Assembly (NCBI RefSeq): GCF_988243305.1
Contig: NZ_OZ547136.1
Length of the DNA: 64,000 bases
Reading direction: 5' to 3' (one strand)
The notes beneath the pieces were generated by a model. It did not search any database, had not been told where the DNA came from, and was given only the letters and a program-made list of their open reading frames with translations. Shown here piece after piece: positions 50-41,917 of the stretch. Each line of letters begins with the position of its first letter. The first letter of the stretch is position 1. The position numbers and the translations under genes were made by a program.

Positions 50-3000
50 TTAATACAACGTATCCGGTAAACGGAATTGGCTGAACAGACCACCGGTGAA
101 CGGGTTATCTTCGGTATCCACATGCACCCGATAAACCATCGCGCCGCCGTCCACGTTAAAGCGCACGTTAAAGGTGTCACTGGTCACGTTGGTCAACTGG
201 CCCGCGCCGAACAGGCGGAACTGCGCCCACGGTCCACTGAAAGCGATACTGCGCGGTGCTCCACCGCTGGTGCCAACCAGCGTCAGCTTGCTTTCATTGC
301 CTTCACGCATGTTGTTTGGCCAGACCAGATGGGCGGTATAGTTGCGTCCCTGGCTGTAGTCCACTAACTGGCCGTCCAGGTTAAGTACGCTGCGCCGTTT
401 ATTGCCGGAAAGCGACACCGTTTCCACGGCAAATTGTGTGCCCAGCCCGTTCTGCTGGCTGAAGAAGATGTCGCGGATTTTTTGCGCGGTATCCAGTTGT
501 TGTCGGATATCTTCACGGATCAGCACTCTGCCGTCGTCGCCAAAGGTCAGATCGTTTTCAAGGAACAGTCGCAGGTTGTCCTTATAGAAATTGTCCAGAA
601 TGCCATCCGGTTTAAAGAAACGTTCAAACGCATCCAGTGAGGCATCCTGTGAGGCGCGTGGATTAAACGGATAGTTACCGGCAAGCTGTTCGTTGAAGGG
701 TTTCACTACATTGTCGCGCCAGTCCACTTCCATGTAATGAACAGCTTCCACCATCACCACGTGCCAGGCCTGATCCGCCAGCTTGCCCACCCAGCGGTTA
801 AGCGGTGCAGGCAGGGTTTTTGCCATCTGGCGGGTGGCGAAGATTGGATCGCTGCTGTTTTGATCCAGGCGTAGCTGCACTGCTTTCAGCGCCGATTTTC
901 CCGGCACTGGCGAGTTCTGGATCGCCAGCAGGTAACGGTGCAGCTCGGTCAGTTGCTGGTACACGGCCTGTAGCGTACTCGCCTTGTCCTTTTGCTCCTC
1001 CAGTGCGCTGTTTTCCGGTGCGAACTCATGCCCCAGCCGGGACAACAGGCGGTAATCCATCTCATTTATCACCGCTTCCCGCGCCTTATCGTCCAGTTTG
1101 CCGGAGAGCGTCAGCGCGTGTGTATTATCGCGCAGCGCCGTCAGCGCACGCTGGAATGGCTGATCGCCGCTGATAATCTGCTCCAGCGCGTCGGTCAGCG
1201 CCGGCATGGCCTCATAGTCACGGACGTTGAGATTATCCATTCCGGCACGCCATGTAGCGGTATAGTCACTGAGGTACTGTTCAGTGATATGGCGCTGGAT
1301 CTCTTCACGGTCGGCCTCGCTGTAGGCGACGCTTTGCGTCAGGTTCAGCACCCACGAATCCAGCGCGGTCAACTCAACGAGACCGTCGTGTTGTTTGATA
1401 AAATAGCTTTGCAGGCCATAGCGGGTGAGAAACTGCGGGATCACCAGTTTTTCATCATTACCGGCGACGAACACGTTGTCGAAGGTGGGACCAACCTGGT
1501 CGCGCAAATTCAAATCGGCGGGCAACACGCTTAATGCTTTGGTGCGTAGGGTCTGGTAGACACGCTGGTATATCGGCAGTTTGCTCAGTTCATGTTGCGC
1601 ATTAATGACCGGTTTATCATAGGGTGTCCAGCGGCTGATGGCGTCGCTGTCGCCGCTCTGGCGCTGCGCGTGCCAGTCGGTGTGTTCCAGCGCATAGTCC
1701 AGATGTGCCATCAGTTGCGCCTGAATATCACGCTGGCCGTGAAATTCATTGCTCCAGCGCCGCGCCATGTACTGTTTTACCGCCTCGTTGTTGCGCCCAC
1801 TTTTGTCTTCCATCATGCGCACTACGCGCAGCACGGCGAGTTTTTCTTCACTCTCAGGCGGGGCATTGTTCAGATCCCGGATCAGGCCGTTCATTAACGA
1901 GGGGAGATAACGCTGCTCAAGAAGCTGAATGTAGGTTTGTTCCACATATGGCCCTACGCGGACGCCCTGGTACAATCCCATATCCGCCAGAAAACCGTGA
2001 TCGCGGTAATCGCCGTAGGCGAGGGTGGCATCGCGTACCGGGTTGAGTAACGGCAGTTGCAGATTGCCGAATTCATCCTTTCCCTGCGGTGGTGGTACGT
2101 CCATAAAGGCTTTAGCCTGTGCCAGTACGTTAACGCCGGACTGCCAGTTCTGGTTGTAATAATGGTGCCAGCTTCCGACCAGCAATGCCGCCAGTGCCGC
2201 GCCACAGGCGGAAAAGGCGGTCAGCCTGCGCCGGGAGCTGTTCAGCCAGACGCTGTTTTCACCTGCAAGGTTTGGCTCGGCTAGCAGGACTTCCGGGAAG
2301 AGGCGGCGGGTGAAATACGGCGTTGTTTCCACCAGGGGCCAGGTCGCCAGCGAGCTGTTGCCCAGCCCGTACTGGCGGGCGGCGGACTGCGTGAAAATAT
2401 CATCCACCTGGCCGCGCTGTAGCGAGGATGTGAGCCAGACGCCGCGCAGCATCACATCCATATTCTCGCCGTCCAGCAATGCGGCGAGCAGTGAAGTGAC
2501 GATTTCTCCCGTTCCCTGCATCTGACGGGAGAAGCTGAACACGGCGCTGCGTAGCGCAGCACCGGTCTGCACGAGCATCAGGTCTGACAGGGCCAGGTTC
2601 ATCTGTTGTCCCCAGGTCTGCCAGAAGGTGCTCAGCTCGCTGCGCCAGTCATCGTTTTCATGAGCGCGGCGGGTAAACGTGACGCCGAGGATCGCGTCGC
2701 GGTCTTTTTTATCCAGTGAATGGAACAGCGCGGCAAAGCCGGTCAGTAGATCCAGCCGGGTCAGCACCACATAAACGGGCAACCGGCAGTGCAGGCACTG
2801 GCGAATTTCCTGAAGTTGCTGACGCAGATTTTGTACCAGTGCTTCGCGACGGAGTTTATCCGCCGTCAGCAGTTCGGGAAGATCGAGCGTCAGGATCAGA
2901 CCATTGAGCGGCTGGCGTGCGCGCGTTTCCATCAGCCAGCCCAGCCAGTGTTCGCGCAGGCGGCGGTGGAGCAGATCATCCCCGCCGGGGGAGGTCAGTA

Positions 3001-3577
3001 CGCCGTCAACATCGAAAATTACTGCCTGGTTGCCCACTCGCGGTGTGATCAGCGGATGATATTCCACACCCCGGATGCTTTCCGGCATGTAAATAATGTC
3101 AGACGGAAAGCCCTCGCGCAGCAGCGTGCTTTTGCCGCTACCCGCAGGACCAATGACCATATACCACGGCAACTGCCACAGATAACTGCGGTTATCCAGA
3201 TGGCGGCGCAGGCGCAGCAGCCAGTGATCCAAATATTGCTGCTGGTGGTGGAGTTCCACGGTCAACGGATCTTTTTCTTCCTCCCGCTGCTGTTTCTGCT
3301 GTTTTTCCAGCTTTTGCAGACGCTTCATTACCCGCCAGGTGAGCCAGACCAGAGCGATAAGCCCCCAGACGGCGGTCGCCAGCCAGCGGTTTGCCAGCGG
3401 AGCCAGCCAGTGCTGCTCATAGAGCGTCCATTTTGGACCCTGCCACCAGATCCACACCAGCAGAAAAATCCATGCCAGCGCCAGCAGCCAGGCGGCGGAT
3501 ACCTTGAATCGCGGCATCGCTGGCCTGAGCGCAGATCTCAACGAGCTGAACAGTCGGGATGTGGGAAATTTGAACAC
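50..3577 (-). CDS. tssM: Type VI secretion membrane subunit TssM (IcmF family)
   Basis: 1175-aa ORF; N-terminal hydrophobic helices (AWLLALAWIFLLVWIWW); Walker A-like GPAGSGKST; size and position typical of TssM; last gene of the minus-strand T6SS operon. Confidence 0.9.
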   Translation of the reverse strand: MFKFPTSRLFSSLRSALRPAMPRFKVSAAWLLALAWIFLLVWIWWQGPKWTLYEQHWLAPLANRWLATAVWGLIALVWLTWRVMKRLQKLEKQQKQQREEEKDPLTVELHHQQQYLDHWLLRLRRHLDNRSYLWQLPWYMVIGPAGSGKSTLLREGFPSDIIYMPESIRGVEYHPLITPRVGNQAVIFDVDGVLTSPGGDDLLHRRLREHWLGWLMETRARQPLNGLILTLDLPELLTADKLRREALVQNLRQQLQEIRQCLHCRLPVYVVLTRLDLLTGFAALFHSLDKKDRDAILGVTFTRRAHENDDWRSELSTFWQTWGQQMNLALSDLMLVQTGAALRSAVFSFSRQMQGTGEIVTSLLAALLDGENMDVMLRGVWLTSSLQRGQVDDIFTQSAARQYGLGNSSLATWPLVETTPYFTRRLFPEVLLAEPNLAGENSVWLNSSRRRLTAFSACGAALAALLVGSWHHYYNQNWQSGVNVLAQAKAFMDVPPPQGKDEFGNLQLPLLNPVRDATLAYGDYRDHGFLADMGLYQGVRVGPYVEQTYIQLLEQRYLPSLMNGLIRDLNNAPPESEEKLAVLRVVRMMEDKSGRNNEAVKQYMARRWSNEFHGQRDIQAQLMAHLDYALEHTDWHAQRQSGDSDAISRWTPYDKPVINAQHELSKLPIYQRVYQTLRTKALSVLPADLNLRDQVGPTFDNVFVAGNDEKLVIPQFLTRYGLQSYFIKQHDGLVELTALDSWVLNLTQSVAYSEADREEIQRHITEQYLSDYTATWRAGMDNLNVRDYEAMPALTDALEQIISGDQPFQRALTALRDNTHALTLSGKLDDKAREAVINEMDYRLLSRLGHEFAPENSALEEQKDKASTLQAVYQQLTELHRYLLAIQNSPVPGKSALKAVQLRLDQNSSDPIFATRQMAKTLPAPLNRWVGKLADQAWHVVMVEAVHYMEVDWRDNVVKPFNEQLAGNYPFNPRASQDASLDAFERFFKPDGILDNFYKDNLRLFLENDLTFGDDGRVLIREDIRQQLDTAQKIRDIFFSQQNGLGTQFAVETVSLSGNKRRSVLNLDGQLVDYSQGRNYTAHLVWPNNMREGNESKLTLVGTSGGAPRSIAFSGPWAQFRLFGAGQLTNVTSDTFNVRFNVDGGAMVYRVHVDTEDNPFTGGLFSQFRLPDTLY

Positions 3578-3596
3578 AGTAACTCCTTGTTATCTT

Positions 3597-5039
3597 TTAC
3601 TGTTCTGCCGTGAATTTTTGTTCCAGTGCTTTCAGCAGGGAAGGCTCCCATTCGGGTAGCATCATGTGTAAGCCTGTTTTGAAGAGCATCCGGTACTGCT
3701 GTTGTGCAAGCTGAACCATACCGGCTTCTTCCAGTAACTGCGCGCCGAAAAATTGGCGATGAAACTGGTTACGGGGATCACCTTCGGGCAGGTTTTCCAG
3801 ATACCGCAGCGCGGTTTCCAGCCCGTTCTCATCGAAGCACGCCCTGGCCGCCTGTAATTCTTCATCGGTCTGTACAGCTGCTGCGGTTTGGTTGCCTGAG
3901 CCCGATGGTGCCAGCCACTGTTTCGTCTGTTCGGACACAAACGGAGTGCGGTCGTTAAACAACAGGTTGATCAGTGCGGGCAGGCGAGCAAGAAAACTGG
4001 TAACTTCATCACGGATAGCATCCGCCACCTGTATATAACCAAGGCGCAACGCGGTCTGTGCTGAGAGGTAATGGCCGTCCAGCCAGTACGGGGCCAGCAG
4101 CAGGCTTTTTTCCACCTGCTGCCAAAGCGCCATGTCGGCATTGTTCAGTCGCGCCAGATAGTCATCCATCATATCTACAGGGAAAGCAGCCAGAGGGGTC
4201 CGGCCATCGCTTTCTGCCTGCGGGGTACTGGTGATGGTCTGCCACAGCGCATGGCGGCGCAGGCGGTAACCCAGCGGTGACTCCGGCTGACGTTCACAGA
4301 GAATGGCGGCTACCTTCAACAGGGTGTCGCGCCATGCTTTATCATCGTGGCTGTCCACGGTGACCTGCGGGATTGGAGTGGCTGCAACAGGAGGCTGAGC
4401 GGAAACTGTGTGCGGTAACATATCCGGTGCAGATCCGGTCGTGGCCTGCGGCGCAATGGCGGCGGTTCGTGCAGATGATGGCATTTCAGGCGCTACATCA
4501 CGAAACGCGCGCTGAAACAGAGTAAATAAATCGTCTGTCGCCTTAGCCAGCTCAGGCGCGTTGTGCGCCTGCCAGCACAGTGCCAGTTTTGCCAGCTCTC
4601 CCAGCAAAGCATCGCGCTGTGTTGTCACAGCATTCCCGGCAAAGTCATGAATGGCCGACTCAAAGCGTTTTATCACTTGGGTGGCGAAGCGTTTTTTGTG
4701 GGCCATGTTCTGCGGCGCGGCGCATGTCCAGTAGTGCTCTGTATATTGTGTCAGTATCCTGGAGGCCAGCAGAATATCACCGGCATGTTGCAGGGTACGC
4801 AGCAGGTGGGCCAGCAGGCGAAAATCTTTGGTTTCTGAGGCCAGAAGCATCAGGCCCCGGCGCTGAAGTTCGGGGATATCAAGCTGGCTGTGCGCCAGTG
4901 AACCGAGCTTGACGATTTCGCTGTCGATAAACTCCCAGTCTGCATTGCCATCATCAAGCGCGGCGGACAGCTTATCTTCCGGCAGGTTTTCCAGCAGGTG
5001 TGCAAGCCATATATCAGGATTACGTAAGTCCATTGCCAT
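3597..5039 (-). CDS. tssA: Type VI secretion protein TssA (ImpA family)
   Basis: ORF track gives 3597..5105; preferred start is the ATG at 5039 (MAMDLRNPDIW...), which has an AGGAGA Shine-Dalgarno 8 nt upstream on the minus strand and avoids overlap with the upstream gene; about 480 aa. Confidence 0.8.
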   Translation of the reverse strand: MAMDLRNPDIWLAHLLENLPEDKLSAALDDGNADWEFIDSEIVKLGSLAHSQLDIPELQRRGLMLLASETKDFRLLAHLLRTLQHAGDILLASRILTQYTEHYWTCAAPQNMAHKKRFATQVIKRFESAIHDFAGNAVTTQRDALLGELAKLALCWQAHNAPELAKATDDLFTLFQRAFRDVAPEMPSSARTAAIAPQATTGSAPDMLPHTVSAQPPVAATPIPQVTVDSHDDKAWRDTLLKVAAILCERQPESPLGYRLRRHALWQTITSTPQAESDGRTPLAAFPVDMMDDYLARLNNADMALWQQVEKSLLLAPYWLDGHYLSAQTALRLGYIQVADAIRDEVTSFLARLPALINLLFNDRTPFVSEQTKQWLAPSGSGNQTAAAVQTDEELQAARACFDENGLETALRYLENLPEGDPRNQFHRQFFGAQLLEEAGMVQLAQQQYRMLFKTGLHMMLPEWEPSLLKALEQKFTAEQ

Positions 5040-5043
5040 ATTT

Positions 5044-5787
5044 TTATTCTCCTGCCCAGTGGCAGGCGTCGCGTAGCGGCGCAATAACCCGCGCCAGCCC
5101 GTCAATGTTAAAGGTCAGCTTTCCGGCAGCATTGTCTGTGCCGGTATCAACCGTCAGTGTTTTAGCAGCGAATAGTTGCTTAATTTCATCAATACCGGAT
5201 AACCCCCGGCTGGACTCCAGCAGGGTGCCGTTCTCGCGCACAAACCAGTGGCTGCGCAATGCCCGGCTGTCGGCATTCAGGGTGACGGCGATATCATGGA
5301 CATCCAGAGGATGCATCAGCGCCACCTGCATCCGGGTGATATTGTCCACGCAACTGAACATCAGCACCGGGCGCGGCGGAACATGACCGATAGCCGGGGT
5401 GGTTATCACTACCGTCGGGCGTTCACCCGGCACCTGCGTCACCAGCAGCTCTGTGGTGCTGCCCTGGCGGCGTTTTTCCTGCTCTGTGGCGCGGGTCCAG
5501 GCTTCGCCCACAAAGCTGGCTTTGACCAGTGCGGCGTTGCCGAAGCCGGGCTGTTCCGGTGCAAGAATGCGGTCATAACAGTCAAGCCGCTCCAGCGCCG
5601 CAGATTCCCGCCGACAGGACTGCATGGCCTGTAACGTGGCTGTCGCATCCGGCGGGGGCGTGGTGGCGACGGCGACCGCCGCACCGGCCATTGACGATGT
5701 TTCTGCGGGCGCGGCACTGGCGGGTAAGCCCGCCATCAGGCCCGCGATAAACCATCCTGCCTGCCGGAAAACGCGCAACCTGCTCAT
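5044..5787 (-). CDS. T6SS-associated exported protein (VasI/TagO-like); family assignment tentative
   Basis: 247-aa ORF embedded between clpV and tssA; N-terminal signal-peptide-like segment (FIAGLMAGLPASAAPA); 4-nt overlap with the clpV stop suggests translational coupling. Confidence 0.5.
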   Translation of the reverse strand: MSRLRVFRQAGWFIAGLMAGLPASAAPAETSSMAGAAVAVATTPPPDATATLQAMQSCRRESAALERLDCYDRILAPEQPGFGNAALVKASFVGEAWTRATEQEKRRQGSTTELLVTQVPGERPTVVITTPAIGHVPPRPVLMFSCVDNITRMQVALMHPLDVHDIAVTLNADSRALRSHWFVRENGTLLESSRGLSGIDEIKQLFAAKTLTVDTGTDNAAGKLTFNIDGLARVIAPLRDACHWAGE

Positions 5788-36621: not shown

Positions 36622-37677
36622 ATGCGTAAAATCATTCATGTGGATATGGACTGCTTTTTCGCCGCAGTGGAGATGCGCGACAATCCCGCCCTGCGCGATA
36701 TCCCTATTGCTATTGGCGGCAGCCGCGAACGTCGGGGGGTGATCAGCACCGCCAATTATCCCGCGCGTAAATTTGGCGTACGTAGCGCTATGCCTACTGG
36801 GATGGCGCTCAAATTATGCCCACATCTCACCTTGCTTCCGGGGCGCTTTGACGCTTACAAAGAAGCCTCAAATCATATCCGTGAAATCTTCTCGCGCTAC
36901 ACCTCGCGCATTGAACCGTTGTCACTGGATGAGGCCTATCTCGATGTCACTGATAGCGTCCATTGCCACGGTTCTGCGACCCTCATCGCCCAGGAAATCC
37001 GCCAGACAATCTTCAACGAGCTGCAACTGACGGCGTCTGCGGGCGTGGCACCAGTAAAGTTTCTCGCTAAAATCGCCTCCGACATGAATAAACCCAACGG
37101 CCAGTTTGTGATTACGCCGGCAGAAGTTCCGGCATTTCTGCAAACCTTACCGCTGGCAAAAATTCCCGGCGTCGGCAAAGTCTCGGCGGCAAAACTGGAA
37201 GCGATGGGGCTGCGGACCTGCGGTGATGTGCAAAAGTGTGATCTGGTGACTCTGCTCAAACGTTTTGGCAAATTTGGCCGCATTTTGTGGGAGCGTAGTC
37301 AGGGGATTGACGAGCGCGACGTTAACAGCGAACGGTTACGAAAATCCGTCGGCGTGGAACGCACGATGGCGGAAGATATTCATCACTGGTCTGAATGTGA
37401 AGCGATTATCGAGCGGCTGTATCCGGAACTTGAACGCCGTCTGGCAAAGGTGAAACCTGATTTACTGATTGCTCGCCAGGGGGTGAAATTAAAGTTCGAC
37501 GATTTTCAGCAAACCACTCAGGAGCACGTCTGGCCGCGGCTGAATAAAGCTGACTTAATTGCCACCGCGCGTAAAACCTGGGATGAACGTCGCGGCGGGC
37601 GCGGTGTGCGGCTGGTGGGGCTGCATGTGACGTTGCTTGACCCGCAAATGGAAAGACAACTGGTGCTGGGATTATGA
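36622..37677 (+). CDS. dinB: DNA polymerase IV DinB
   Basis: 351 aa; [26 protein letters not shown]... Y-family polymerase. Confidence 0.9.
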
Positions 37678-37728: not shown

Positions 37729-38022
37729 ATGCATCGAATTCTCGCTGAAAAATCGGTCAATATCACTGAGTTACGTAAAAACCCAGCTAAATACTTTATT
37801 GATCAACCGGTTGCGGTTCTTTCTAATAATCGCCCCGCAGGATATCTCTTAAGTGCCAGCGCATTCGAAGCGTTAATGGACATGCTTGCAGAACAAGAGG
37901 AGAAAAAACTGGTGAAGGCGCGCTTCCGTCCGAGTGCCGCAAGATTAGAGGAAATTACACGCCGCGCTGAACAATATCTTAATGATATGACGGATGATGA
38001 TTTCAATGACTTTAAGGAATAA
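37729..38022 (+). CDS. yafN: Antitoxin YafN
   Basis: 97 aa; matches YafN as recalled; immediately upstream of yafO. Confidence 0.85.
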   Translation: MHRILAEKSVNITELRKNPAKYFIDQPVAVLSNNRPAGYLLSASAFEALMDMLAEQEEKKLVKARFRPSAARLEEITRRAEQYLNDMTDDDFNDFKE

Positions 38023-38024
38023 GG

Positions 38025-38423
38025 ATGCGGGTATTCAAAACAAAACTTATTCGCCTGCAACTTACAGCAGAGGAACTTGATGCGTTAACGGCGGATTTTA
38101 TTTCCTATAAGCGTGACGGTATTTTGCCAGATATATTTGGTCGCGATGCACTCTACGACGACTCGTTTACCTGGCCATTAATCAAATTTGAGCGAGTTGC
38201 TCATATTCATCTGGCAAATGTGAATAATCCATTTCCGCCACAGTTGCGCCAATTCAGCAGAACGAATGACGAAGCGCATTTGGTATATTGTCAGGGGGCG
38301 TTTGATGAGCAAGCATGGTTGCTCATTGCCATTCTGAAGCCTGAACCTCATAAACTGGCTCGAGATAACAACCAAATGCATAAAATTGGAAAAATGGCAG
38401 AAGCGTTTCGCATGCGTTTTTGA
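38025..38423 (+). CDS. yafO: Toxin YafO
   Basis: 132 aa; matches YafO as recalled; starts 3 nt after the yafN stop. Confidence 0.85.
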   Translation: MRVFKTKLIRLQLTAEELDALTADFISYKRDGILPDIFGRDALYDDSFTWPLIKFERVAHIHLANVNNPFPPQLRQFSRTNDEAHLVYCQGAFDEQAWLLIAILKPEPHKLARDNNQMHKIGKMAEAFRMRF

Positions 38424-38432
38424 ATTTATATT

Positions 38433-38846
38433 ATGAATAACATACAAATAAGAGATTATCAGCCTGGCGATTTTCAGCAACTATGCGCTATTTTCATTAG
38501 AGCGGTTACGATGACCGCCAGTCAGCATTATTCACCACAACAAATTGCCGCCTGGGCGCAGATTGACGAATCTCGCTGGAAGGAGAAACTCGCGAAATCA
38601 CAAGTGCGGGTTGCAGTCATTAATGCAAAACTGGTCGGCTTTATTACCTGCGTTGAACACTATATCGATATGTTATTTGTTGACCCTGAATACACCCGCC
38701 GTGGGGTTGCCAGCGCTTTGTTAAAACCTTTGATTAAGTCTGAATCCGAACTTACAGTGGACGCCAGCATAACCGCAAAACCCTTTTTTGAACGTTATGG
38801 TTTTCAGACAGTTAAGCAGCAGCGCGTTGAATGCAGGGGAGCGTGA
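38433..38846 (+). CDS. yafP: GNAT-family acetyltransferase YafP, apparently truncated by 13 codons
   Basis: 137-aa ORF ends at TGA (38844-38846); the next 12 in-frame sense codons (FTNFYMRYKPQH) then TAA would restore a 150-aa protein. Confidence 0.8.
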   Translation: MNNIQIRDYQPGDFQQLCAIFIRAVTMTASQHYSPQQIAAWAQIDESRWKEKLAKSQVRVAVINAKLVGFITCVEHYIDMLFVDPEYTRRGVASALLKPLIKSESELTVDASITAKPFFERYGFQTVKQQRVECRGA

Positions 38847-39129
38847 TTTACTAATTTTTATATGCGATATAAACCGCAACATTAAATTCAGCTTGCAATG
38901 AAAATAACACCCGCCTGGTATGTGCGCGTTTTCTTATTCCACAAACTGCAAGGAGGTAAATCATGACAAATCCTTTATCAATGACTCTTTGCAGACCTTT
39001 CCAGGATTAATTCTTTTTTCTTGCCCTGGATTCGTCTGCCATTTCCTGATTTTTATATTTATATACTCTAAATAATTCGAGTCGCAGTACATGCAACTTG
39101 AAGTATGACGAGTATAAATGGAATGATAC

Positions 39130-39684
39130 ATGGGCAAATATATTCGTCCCTTATCCGATGCGGTATTTACCATCGCATCTGATGACCTGTGGATCGAGAG
39201 TTTAGCGATTCAACAATTACACACCACGGCAAATTTACCCAACATGCAGCGCGTAGTAGGGATGCCAGATTTACACCCCGGACGCGGCTACCCGATTGGC
39301 GCAGCGTTATTCTCTGTTGGTCGTTTTTACCCGGCAAGACGTCGCGGTAACGGTGCTGGAAACAGAAACGGGCCGCTACTCTGACACGCTGCGTTCGGCG
39401 CTGATTTCTCTGGATGGCGATAACGCATGGGCATTAAGCGAAAGTTGGTGCGGCACTATTCAGTGGATTTGTCCGAGTCCGTATCGGCCTCATCATGGGC
39501 GCAAAAACTTGTTTCTGGGCATGCTAACAAGCGGCTGGCGCGATTGCTGATTGCCTGGAAGCTGGAACAACAGCAACAGGAAAATAGCGCGGTGCTGAAA
39601 TCGCGGCGGCGAATGTTCCATCACCAGATTGAACGTGGCAACCCGAGACGGACATTTACAGGGATGGCTTTTATCGAAGGATAA
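39130..39684 (+). pseudogene. ykfJ'/prfH' remnant: RtcB N-terminal fragment followed by fragmented release-factor-H homologue
   Basis: Three short overlapping ORFs in different frames: RtcB-like N-terminus (...[25 protein letters not shown]) and PrfH-like pieces (...[48 protein letters not shown]). Confidence 0.5.
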
Positions 39685-39740
39685 TGAAGGATGAAACTGC
39701 CGGAAGGCGATTAAACGCCATCCGGCAGCAAATCAAATAA

Positions 39741-41198
39741 TTACTTCGCCGGAATTTCTTTCAGCAGCTCAGTCAGCAGTGTCCAGTAATGACCTACGCT
39801 TTCGATGTGAACTTGCTCATCCGGAGAGTGTGGACCGGTGATTGTTGGCCCGATAGAAACCATGTCCATTTCCGGATACGGTTTTTTGAACAGACCACAT
39901 TCCAGGCCCGCGTGGATAATCTGGATGTTCGGCGTCTTGTTGAACAGACGCTGATAAGTTTCACGTACCAGATGCATCACCGGAGAATTAGCGTCCGGCT
40001 GCCAGCCAGGATATGCGCCTTTCGCTTCGGTTTTCGCGCCAGCCAGTTTACCCAGCGAATCCAGCATGCTCACCACGTAGTCTTTACCGCTGTCGATCAG
40101 AGAACGGATCAGGCAGTGAATTTCTACGTTATTGTCAGTCATGGTCACCACACCGACGTTCAGGGAGGTTTCGACCACACCTTTTGCCACGTCGGAGTTG
40201 CGGATCACACCGTTCGGGGTGGCGTTCAGCAGACGAATAAAGGTATCGCGAGATTTCGCAATCAGAGCTGCTTTATCGTTCGCTACAGAGTCCAGCAACA
40301 AGGCCAGATTCTTCTCTTTCTCTGCCAGCTCGTTTTTCAGGATCTCCTGATAGGTATTCACCAGAGATTTCAGGGCGTCGACTTTATCAGCTGCGACAGC
40401 AATGGTCGCAAAGGCTTCACGCGGGATGGCGTTACGCAGTGTGCCGCCGTTGAAATCAATAAGACGCAGGTCCAGTTCTTCTGCATGACCCGCCAGGAAG
40501 CGCACCAGCAGTTTGTTCGCGTTACCCAGGCCAACGTGGATTTCACCGCCGGAGTGACCGCCTTTCAGACCTTTTAAGGTTAACTTGAAGGTTTCAAAAC
40601 CAGCTGGAACTGCTTCACGATCTAAATGCAGGTTGGAGGTGAAGTCGATACCCCCCGCGCAACCCATGTAGATTTCACCTTCTTCTTCGGAGTCGGTGTT
40701 AATCAGAATATCAGCCTGCAACCAGTTGCTTTGTAAGCCAAAAGCACCGTCCATACCGGCTTCTTCGGTCATGGTCAGCAGCACTTCCAGCGGGCCGTGA
40801 ACCACGTTTTCGTCAGCCAGAACCGCCAGTGCAGAGGCCATACCAATGCCGTTATCCGCACCCAGCGTGGTGCCGCGCGCTTTAACCCATTCGCCATCAA
40901 TATAAGGCTGGATAGGATCTTTCGTGAAGTCATGCACGGTGTCGTTATTTTTCTGCGGCACCATATCGAGGTGGGCCTGCAAGACGACCGGTTTACGATT
41001 TTCCATACCTGCGGTAGCAGGTTTACGAATCAGGATATTACCTACCTGATCGCGTTCGACATGGAAACCTTTCTCTTTTGCCCAACCAACAATGTATTCA
41101 GCGAGTTGCTCTTCATGATAGGACGGGTGAGGAATAGAACAGATTTTGGCAAAAATATCCCACAGCGGCTGTGGAGATAATTGAGACAGTTCAGACAC
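39741..41198 (-). CDS. pepD: Cytosol non-specific dipeptidase PepD
   Basis: 485 aa; M20-family dipeptidase matching PepD. Confidence 0.9.
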   Translation of the reverse strand: MSELSQLSPQPLWDIFAKICSIPHPSYHEEQLAEYIVGWAKEKGFHVERDQVGNILIRKPATAGMENRKPVVLQAHLDMVPQKNNDTVHDFTKDPIQPYIDGEWVKARGTTLGADNGIGMASALAVLADENVVHGPLEVLLTMTEEAGMDGAFGLQSNWLQADILINTDSEEEGEIYMGCAGGIDFTSNLHLDREAVPAGFETFKLTLKGLKGGHSGGEIHVGLGNANKLLVRFLAGHAEELDLRLIDFNGGTLRNAIPREAFATIAVAADKVDALKSLVNTYQEILKNELAEKEKNLALLLDSVANDKAALIAKSRDTFIRLLNATPNGVIRNSDVAKGVVETSLNVGVVTMTDNNVEIHCLIRSLIDSGKDYVVSMLDSLGKLAGAKTEAKGAYPGWQPDANSPVMHLVRETYQRLFNKTPNIQIIHAGLECGLFKKPYPEMDMVSIGPTITGPHSPDEQVHIESVGHYWTLLTELLKEIPAK

Positions 41199-41458: not shown

Positions 41459-41917
41459 ATGAGCGAAAAATACATCGTCACCTGGGACATGTTGCAGATC
41501 CATGCACGTAAACTCGCAAGCCGACTGATGCCTTCTGAACAATGGAAAGGCATTATTGCCGTAAGCCGTGGCGGTCTGGTACCGGGTGCGTTACTGGCGC
41601 GTGAACTGGGTATTCGTCATGTCGATACCGTTTGTATTTCCAGCTATGATCACGACAACCAGCGCGAGCTTAAAGTGCTGAAACGCGCAGAAGGCGATGG
41701 CGAAGGCTTCATCGTTATTGATGACCTGGTGGATACCGGTGGCACTGCGGTTGCGATTCGTGAAATGTATCCAAAAGCGCACTTTGTCACCATCTTCGCA
41801 AAACCGGCTGGTCGTCCGCTGGTTGATGATTATGTTGTTGATATCCCGCAAGATACCTGGATCGAACAACCGTGGGATATGGGCGTCGTATTCGTCCCGC
41901 CAATCTCCGGTCGCTAA
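41459..41917 (+). CDS. gpt: Xanthine-guanine phosphoribosyltransferase Gpt
   Basis: 152 aa; PRTase motif [11 protein letters not shown]. Confidence 0.9.

Follow-up and report, generated by a model that had tools for sequence, protein, structure and literature searches.

The interval at positions 39130-39684 of the DNA analysed here (the window, a stretch of 64,000 nucleotides) appears, with a probability that we put at roughly 96%, to be a relic, no longer functional, of the ribosome-repair operon rtcB2-prfH, located at its usual site between yafP and pepD on an Escherichia coli chromosome. This reading is favored because of the homology and gene order, the precisely mapped lesions and the distribution among genomes described below. 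Homology at the orthologous site together with disabling lesions classes the stretch as a pseudogene, and the RefSeq pseudogene call agrees. Such a pseudogene is already known, since it is annotated and widespread; a paper of 2006 described its first lesion, and work of 2022 explained what the parent operon does. The modest addition made here is the exact map and the frequency of a second deletion, which removes the GGQ motif.

The neighborhood of the relic was assigned from the open reading frames (ORFs) of the window (Table 1). The gene order dinB, yafN, yafO, yafP, relic, pepD and gpt was the same as in annotated genomes. When positions 38900-39760 were compared with 5426 complete E. coli genomes by megablast, 5417 of them gave a match at 90% identity or more. 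The top match was strain 7/2 (NZ_CP023820), which was 99.8% identical over all 861 bp and gapless. In RefSeq, strain 7/2 carries an incomplete 'RNA ligase RtcB family protein' pseudogene at 3231-3437 of the extracted locus, equivalent to 39130-39336 of the window, and a prfH pseudogene described as 'frameshifted; incomplete; missing N-terminus' at 3433-3785, equivalent to 39332-39684. The two ends of the relic, an ATG at 39130 and a TAA at 39682-39684, are equal to the ends of these pseudogenes in this near-identical strain, and the same limits had been given in the initial annotation.

Table 1. Features of the relic and of its surroundings, in positions of the window.
Feature	Position	Strand	Frame	Description or basis
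dinB	36622-37677			ORF identification
yafN	37729-38022			ORF identification
yafO	38025-38423			ORF identification
yafP	38433-38846			ORF identification
Intergenic region, yafP stop to rtcB' ATG	38847-39129	+		From 38886 on, homologous to the upstream region of the intact operon
rtcB2' (K-12 name ykfJ')	39130-39336	+	1	Codons 1-69 of a 379-codon RNA ligase gene
Deletion 1 junction	39330-39336			1027 bp removed; alignment to intact operon
prfH' piece A	39337-39518 (to ~39520)	+	2	Codons ~32-94, part of the rRNA-recognition domain; tblastn
Deletion 2 junction	39519-39522			169 bp removed; 4-bp GCAT microhomology
prfH' piece B	39520-39684	+	1	Codons 151-204 and TAA
Hairpin	39697-39728			Intact; between the prfH' stop and the convergent pepD stop
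pepD	39741-41198	-		Convergent with prfH'; ORF identification
gpt	41459-41917			ORF identification

The interval was aligned to an intact operon. Strain 2013C-4225 (NZ_CP027577) served as the intact reference, with rtcB at 3774-4913 (379 aa) and prfH at 4910-5524 (204 aa) in coordinates of the extracted locus, where the end of rtcB and the start of prfH share a stop/start overlap. The comparison consisted of pairwise blastn and a MAFFT alignment of 7 alleles. The sole large differences from the intact operon were a gap of 1027 bp (deletion 1) and a gap of 169 bp (deletion 2), and the flanking DNA was 94-98% identical; blastn of 38886-39336 against the intact operon locus gave 93.8% identity. 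The initial annotation, made from the sequence of the window, had proposed a pseudogene relic of an RtcB-PrfH module with an internal deletion, and had named alignment to intact rtcB-prfH operons as the way to check it. This alignment mapped the deletions and supported the relic through two disabling lesions. The internal deletion was present as proposed; the number had to be revised to two, and the last ~310 codons of rtcB and the first ~30 codons of prfH proved to be lost as well. The shifting frames that had been noticed were also found, with the three pieces lying in frames 1, 2 and 1. They arise from the two clean deletions and not from small frameshift indels, because 1027 and 169 each exceed a multiple of 3 by 1. 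In total, the window keeps 18% of rtcB and 57% of prfH, and the catalytic parts are gone. A continuous intact ORF, which the initial annotation had named as the finding that would speak against a relic, was not found in the interval, where the longest plus-strand ORFs were 84, 84 and 85 aa. Searches for the deleted DNA and protein segments, tblastn among them, gave no match elsewhere in the 64-kb window. A rearrangement instead of deletion was therefore rejected. Substitutions in the remnant numbered 16 synonymous to 10 non-synonymous among 5 alleles, numbers that are too small to reveal relaxed selection directly and are confounded by the history before the deletions.

The first piece was 97.1% identical to residues 1-69 of intact RtcB2 (BLASTP, E 4e-47) and occupies the same yafP-pepD interval as the intact member, indicating orthology. 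The RtcB-like N-terminus claimed earlier was thus correct in identity, and its length was corrected from about 60 to 69 residues. TIGR03073 (release_rtcB) matched the piece with E 3e-28. The piece scored below the curated cut-offs of NF007153 (106.5 versus 407 bits), TIGR03073 (99 versus 271.8) and Pfam PF01139 (23.4 versus 27), and the intact RtcB2 orthologue reached 642.8 bits with NF007153, 618 with TIGR03073 and 252.1 with Pfam RtcB. Past 39336 the frame is no longer that of rtcB, and the ORF, of 84 aa in all, terminates at 39384. The catalytic core is missing from the piece, which holds residues 1-69 only; the intact protein goes on with ...LVGNDIGCGM... for 310 further residues. The metal-binding and guanylylated-histidine region of RtcB lies downstream of residue ~70.

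Deletion 1 takes rtcB codons 70-379 and prfH codons 1-30, and imperfect microhomology (CCGGCA/CCGACA) was observed at its junction. The overlap of the rtcB stop and the prfH start falls within the 1027 bp. In the alignment, the junction was common to the window and to the K-12, O157:H7, H5 and C122 alleles. A deletion of ~1000 nt, which takes the C-terminal portion of the upstream gene together with the N-terminal portion of RFH, has been described in K12 MG1655, W3110 and O157:H7 Sakai and EDL933, and the region is uninterrupted in CFT073, 042 and UTI89 (Baranov 2006, PMC1586002). By alignment, the 1027-bp deletion of the window is this known K-12/O157:H7 lesion.

The other two pieces derive from prfH. 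Piece A was 96.8% identical to PrfH residues 32-94 (E 2e-46) and piece B was 98.1% identical to residues 151-204 (E 3e-37), both by BLASTP. On TIGR03072 (release_prfH), piece A covered profile positions 31-93 (85 bits, E 5e-24) and piece B positions 150-200 (56.1 bits, E 4e-15), each under the cut-off of 166.65, with intact PrfH at 325.7. For all three pieces of the relic, E values of this size leave no room for a chance match. The Pfam PF00472 RF-1 domain gave no match in the window pieces and 85.1 bits in intact PrfH. Deletion 2 takes PrfH codons ~95-150, that is, linker 1 and most of the GGQ (peptide-hydrolase) domain. The GGQ domain of PrfH comprises residues 108-161, and Q122 is required (Tian et al., PMC9304027). 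The GGQ motif is at residues 120-122 of intact PrfH, inside the 169-bp gap, and a GGQ-bearing match was found nowhere in the window, so the earlier claim that the GGQ-bearing center is missing was borne out. In addition, prfH' is without the first ~30 codons, the start codon and the translational coupling to rtcB. Judged from their sequences, the pieces are fragments of RtcB and PrfH family orthologues and would functionally not be members of these families.

The DNA on both sides of the relic was also compared. A 72-bp insert between the positions equivalent to 39079 and 39080 was observed in K-12-type alleles (3182-3253 of the extracted K-12-type locus) and C122-type alleles, and was absent from the window, from strain H5 and from the intact reference. 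Copies of this insert occur at a median of 5 places in a genome; it contains AAGTAAGTGACTGGGGTGAACG, which matches the ERIC2 primer / ERIC (IRU) repeat. Downstream of the relic, the hairpin has a stem of 12 bp (CTGCCGGA.GGCG / CGCC.TCCGGCAG) and a folding energy of -25.2 kcal/mol (z = -6.3), and none of 200 shuffles was as stable. It was missed by a simple terminator scan because it has no T-run, and is probably a shared, bidirectional terminator or a REP-like element. No RNA gene was found in 38000-40500 with Rfam at E up to 1, the sole match being a chance one to sR28 snoRNA (15.4 bits versus a gathering score of 39).

Two differences in the genes upstream were observed along with these. In the window, yafP stops early at a TGA (38844-38846, codon 138), giving a protein of 137 aa; six of the six compared alleles have TGG at codon 138 and a protein of 150 aa. 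The exact 35-mer with the A of this TGA occurred in 0 of 5426 complete genomes, and the control with G in 1782. Either the acetyltransferase gene of the dinB operon has acquired a private nonsense mutation, or the TGA is a sequencing error. The yafNO toxin-antitoxin pair (37729-38423) was present in the window, K-12, 7/2 and H5. It was missing in 2013C-4225, MEW and C122, in which dinB and yafP overlap with no gene between them. Whether a strain has the pair does not depend on its rtcB-prfH allele.

The distribution of the alleles was measured in the 5426 complete E. coli genomes. The intact operon, at 80% or more of its length, was present in ~2675 of them, and the contiguous deleted form in ~2672 by whole-interval match. 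With an 81-bp probe, the deletion-1 junction was detected in at least 1931 genomes, which is an undercount, as SNPs of the H5 type leave no exact 28-mer. For deletion 2, junction-specific 50-mers, which seed solely across the junction, were used; the count from an 81-bp probe was discarded because the search bridged the 169-bp gap and merged the two prfH pieces into one match. The exact deletion-2 junction haplotype of the window was found in 267 genomes and the C122-type haplotype in 344, and each of the two 50-mer searches gave 47 genomes that were 1-2 mismatches off. Provided that both sets of 47 coincide, the total for deletion 2 is ~658 genomes (~12%). An even-step sample, in which 7 of 60 rows had 32% coverage, roughly agrees with this frequency.

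Deletion 2 sits on two haplotypes. Some of its carriers have the 72-bp insert and others do not, which holds for yafNO as well, and the 50-mer searches showed that an intermediate junction haplotype exists. Four-gamete conflicts with deletion 2 were observed for the common SNPs at 39404, 39531, 39570, 39593 and 39646, which are ~10-130 bp from the junction. In the 7-allele sample, 39451C was carried by 3 of 3 deletion-2 alleles and by no other allele. These patterns suggest that deletion 2 had one origin and was then distributed by ordinary E. coli recombination; a single origin is favored over recurrence because 39451C is exclusive to the deletion-2 alleles sampled. The two haplotypes, the conflicts so near the junction and the occurrence in ~12% of genomes also give a hint of a different history, in which the 169-bp deletion was favored rather than neutral and either spread by recombination or recurred at the GCAT microhomology. 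Selection of this kind is conceivable because the free-standing GGQ fragment of the K-12-type remnant could be mildly harmful if expressed. We consider this history quite unlikely.

We were also interested in whether the remnant had been co-opted as a small functional protein, encoded either by the 84-aa ORF at 39130-39384 or by the 85-aa ORF at 39427-39684. Both ORFs start with ATG and are uninterrupted in the window, and the allele has become fixed in several hundred genomes. The 84-aa ORF consists of RtcB residues 1-69 and a 15-aa novel tail, and the last 54 residues of the 85-aa ORF are the PrfH C-terminus. However, all catalytic elements are missing (GGQ, the RF-1 domain and RtcB beyond residue 69), and the limits of the ORFs are accidents of deletions that vary between alleles. 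PrfH residues 180-204, at the C-terminus, make up part of a split rRNA-recognition domain (PMC9304027). No sigma-70-like plus-strand site was found upstream of rtcB' in a scan of 38700-39900, in which the counts of promoters and terminators did not exceed those of shuffles. Moreover, knocking out the truncated genes of K-12 gave no colicin E3 phenotype (PMC9223846). A co-opted small protein is thus very improbable.

That the deletions are artefacts of assembly or sequencing and the true genome is intact has nothing specific in its favor, although the allele alignment did show a few SNPs that the window does not share with its nearest relatives. The identical deletion-2 junction in 267 independent complete genomes, the deletion-1 junction in at least 1931 and the gapless full-length match of strain 7/2 all stand against it. 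With the same junctions recurring in independent complete genomes, an assembly artefact was rejected as having a negligible chance. Release factor 2 genes use +1 frameshifting, and the pieces do occupy different frames, as would be seen if the frame changes were programmed recoding, as in prfB, toward a full-length release-factor-like product. This possibility is equally negligible and is refuted by the alignment to the intact gene, as the frame changes fall exactly at the 1027-bp and 169-bp gaps and even perfect recoding would still omit PrfH residues 1-30 and 95-150, GGQ included.

For the relic of the rtcB2-prfH operon, the following course of decay is proposed. Two microhomology-flanked deletions generated it. 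Deletion 1, carried by about half of sequenced E. coli including K-12 and O157:H7, placed prfH from codon ~31 on, in another frame, directly behind rtcB codon 69. The catalytic core of the ligase and the stop of rtcB went with it, as did the start of prfH and the translational coupling there. Deletion 2 presumably came later, in a subset of deletion-1 strains, and removed the GGQ peptide-hydrolase center. The remnant would then contain neither an RNA-ligating nor a peptidyl-tRNA-hydrolysing part, and the DNA would be a decaying spacer. The relic could be transcribed via read-through from dinB-yafNOP or from the old operon promoter.

In the intact module, PrfH binds in the A site of a ribosome after colicin E3 or CdiA-CT has cut its 16S rRNA, and frees the nascent peptide; once the 30S subunit has been released, RtcB2 joins the cut 16S rRNA on it again (PMC9304027). 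In ATCC 25922, loss of either gene led to sensitization to colicin E3, and the truncated operon of BW25113 gave no protection against colicin E3 (PMC9223846). By analogy with the K-12 allele, loss of this function would be expected to result in sensitivity to colicin-E3-type cleavage of 16S rRNA. The source strain presumably lacks RtcB2-PrfH ribosome repair, and full sensitivity to colicin E3 and to CdiA-CT-type 16S rRNA nucleases is thus predicted unless it is otherwise protected. The locus also illustrates the stepwise decay of a conflict-system operon that has been lost in about half of the species, and it is a handy multi-allelic E. coli marker, with intact, deletion 1, deletion 1+2 and 1644-bp deletion forms. 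Beyond correct annotation, its importance is small.

One of the closest known relatives is the ykfJ'/prfH' pair of K-12, an rtcB2-prfH operon with a deletion of ~1 kb (Pel 1992; Baranov 2006). The K-12 pair occupies the same chromosomal site and has the identical 1027-bp junction and the same 69 rtcB codons, so that the ykfJ'/prfH' naming of the initial annotation fits. The K-12 allele differs in retaining prfH codons ~36-204 as one ORF of 168 codons including GGQ, whereas the window has lost a further 169 bp and with them GGQ; K-12 also has the 72-bp ERIC-like upstream insert, which the window is without. On alignment, the window allele can be described as a further-decayed form of the K-12 allele. 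Compared with the intact RtcB2-PrfH of ATCC 25922 and CFT073 (Tian 2022; Maviza 2022), the relic is orthologous and syntenic, and its kept parts are 94-98% identical at the DNA level. However, the genes of the intact system, whose stop and start overlap, code for a ligase of 379 aa and a release-factor homologue of 204 aa, and in the window the catalytic parts of both are gone.

Strains 7/2 and C122 (NZ_CP170128) share the boundaries of both deletions with the window and are likewise annotated as pseudogenes. The C122-type haplotype has the ERIC-like insert, no yafNO and SNP differences in the flanks, whereas the window is of the 7/2 type. Strain MEW (NZ_CM192120) has a fourth allele, with a single 1644-bp deletion by which the whole of rtcB is gone and prfH has lost its 5' part. 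At 2983-3396 of its extracted locus, MEW holds a 137-aa ORF with a new MKITPA start and with GGQ kept, and in RefSeq this ORF is an intact 'prfH' CDS (WP_025210216.1), although the gene is truncated and has probably been over-annotated.
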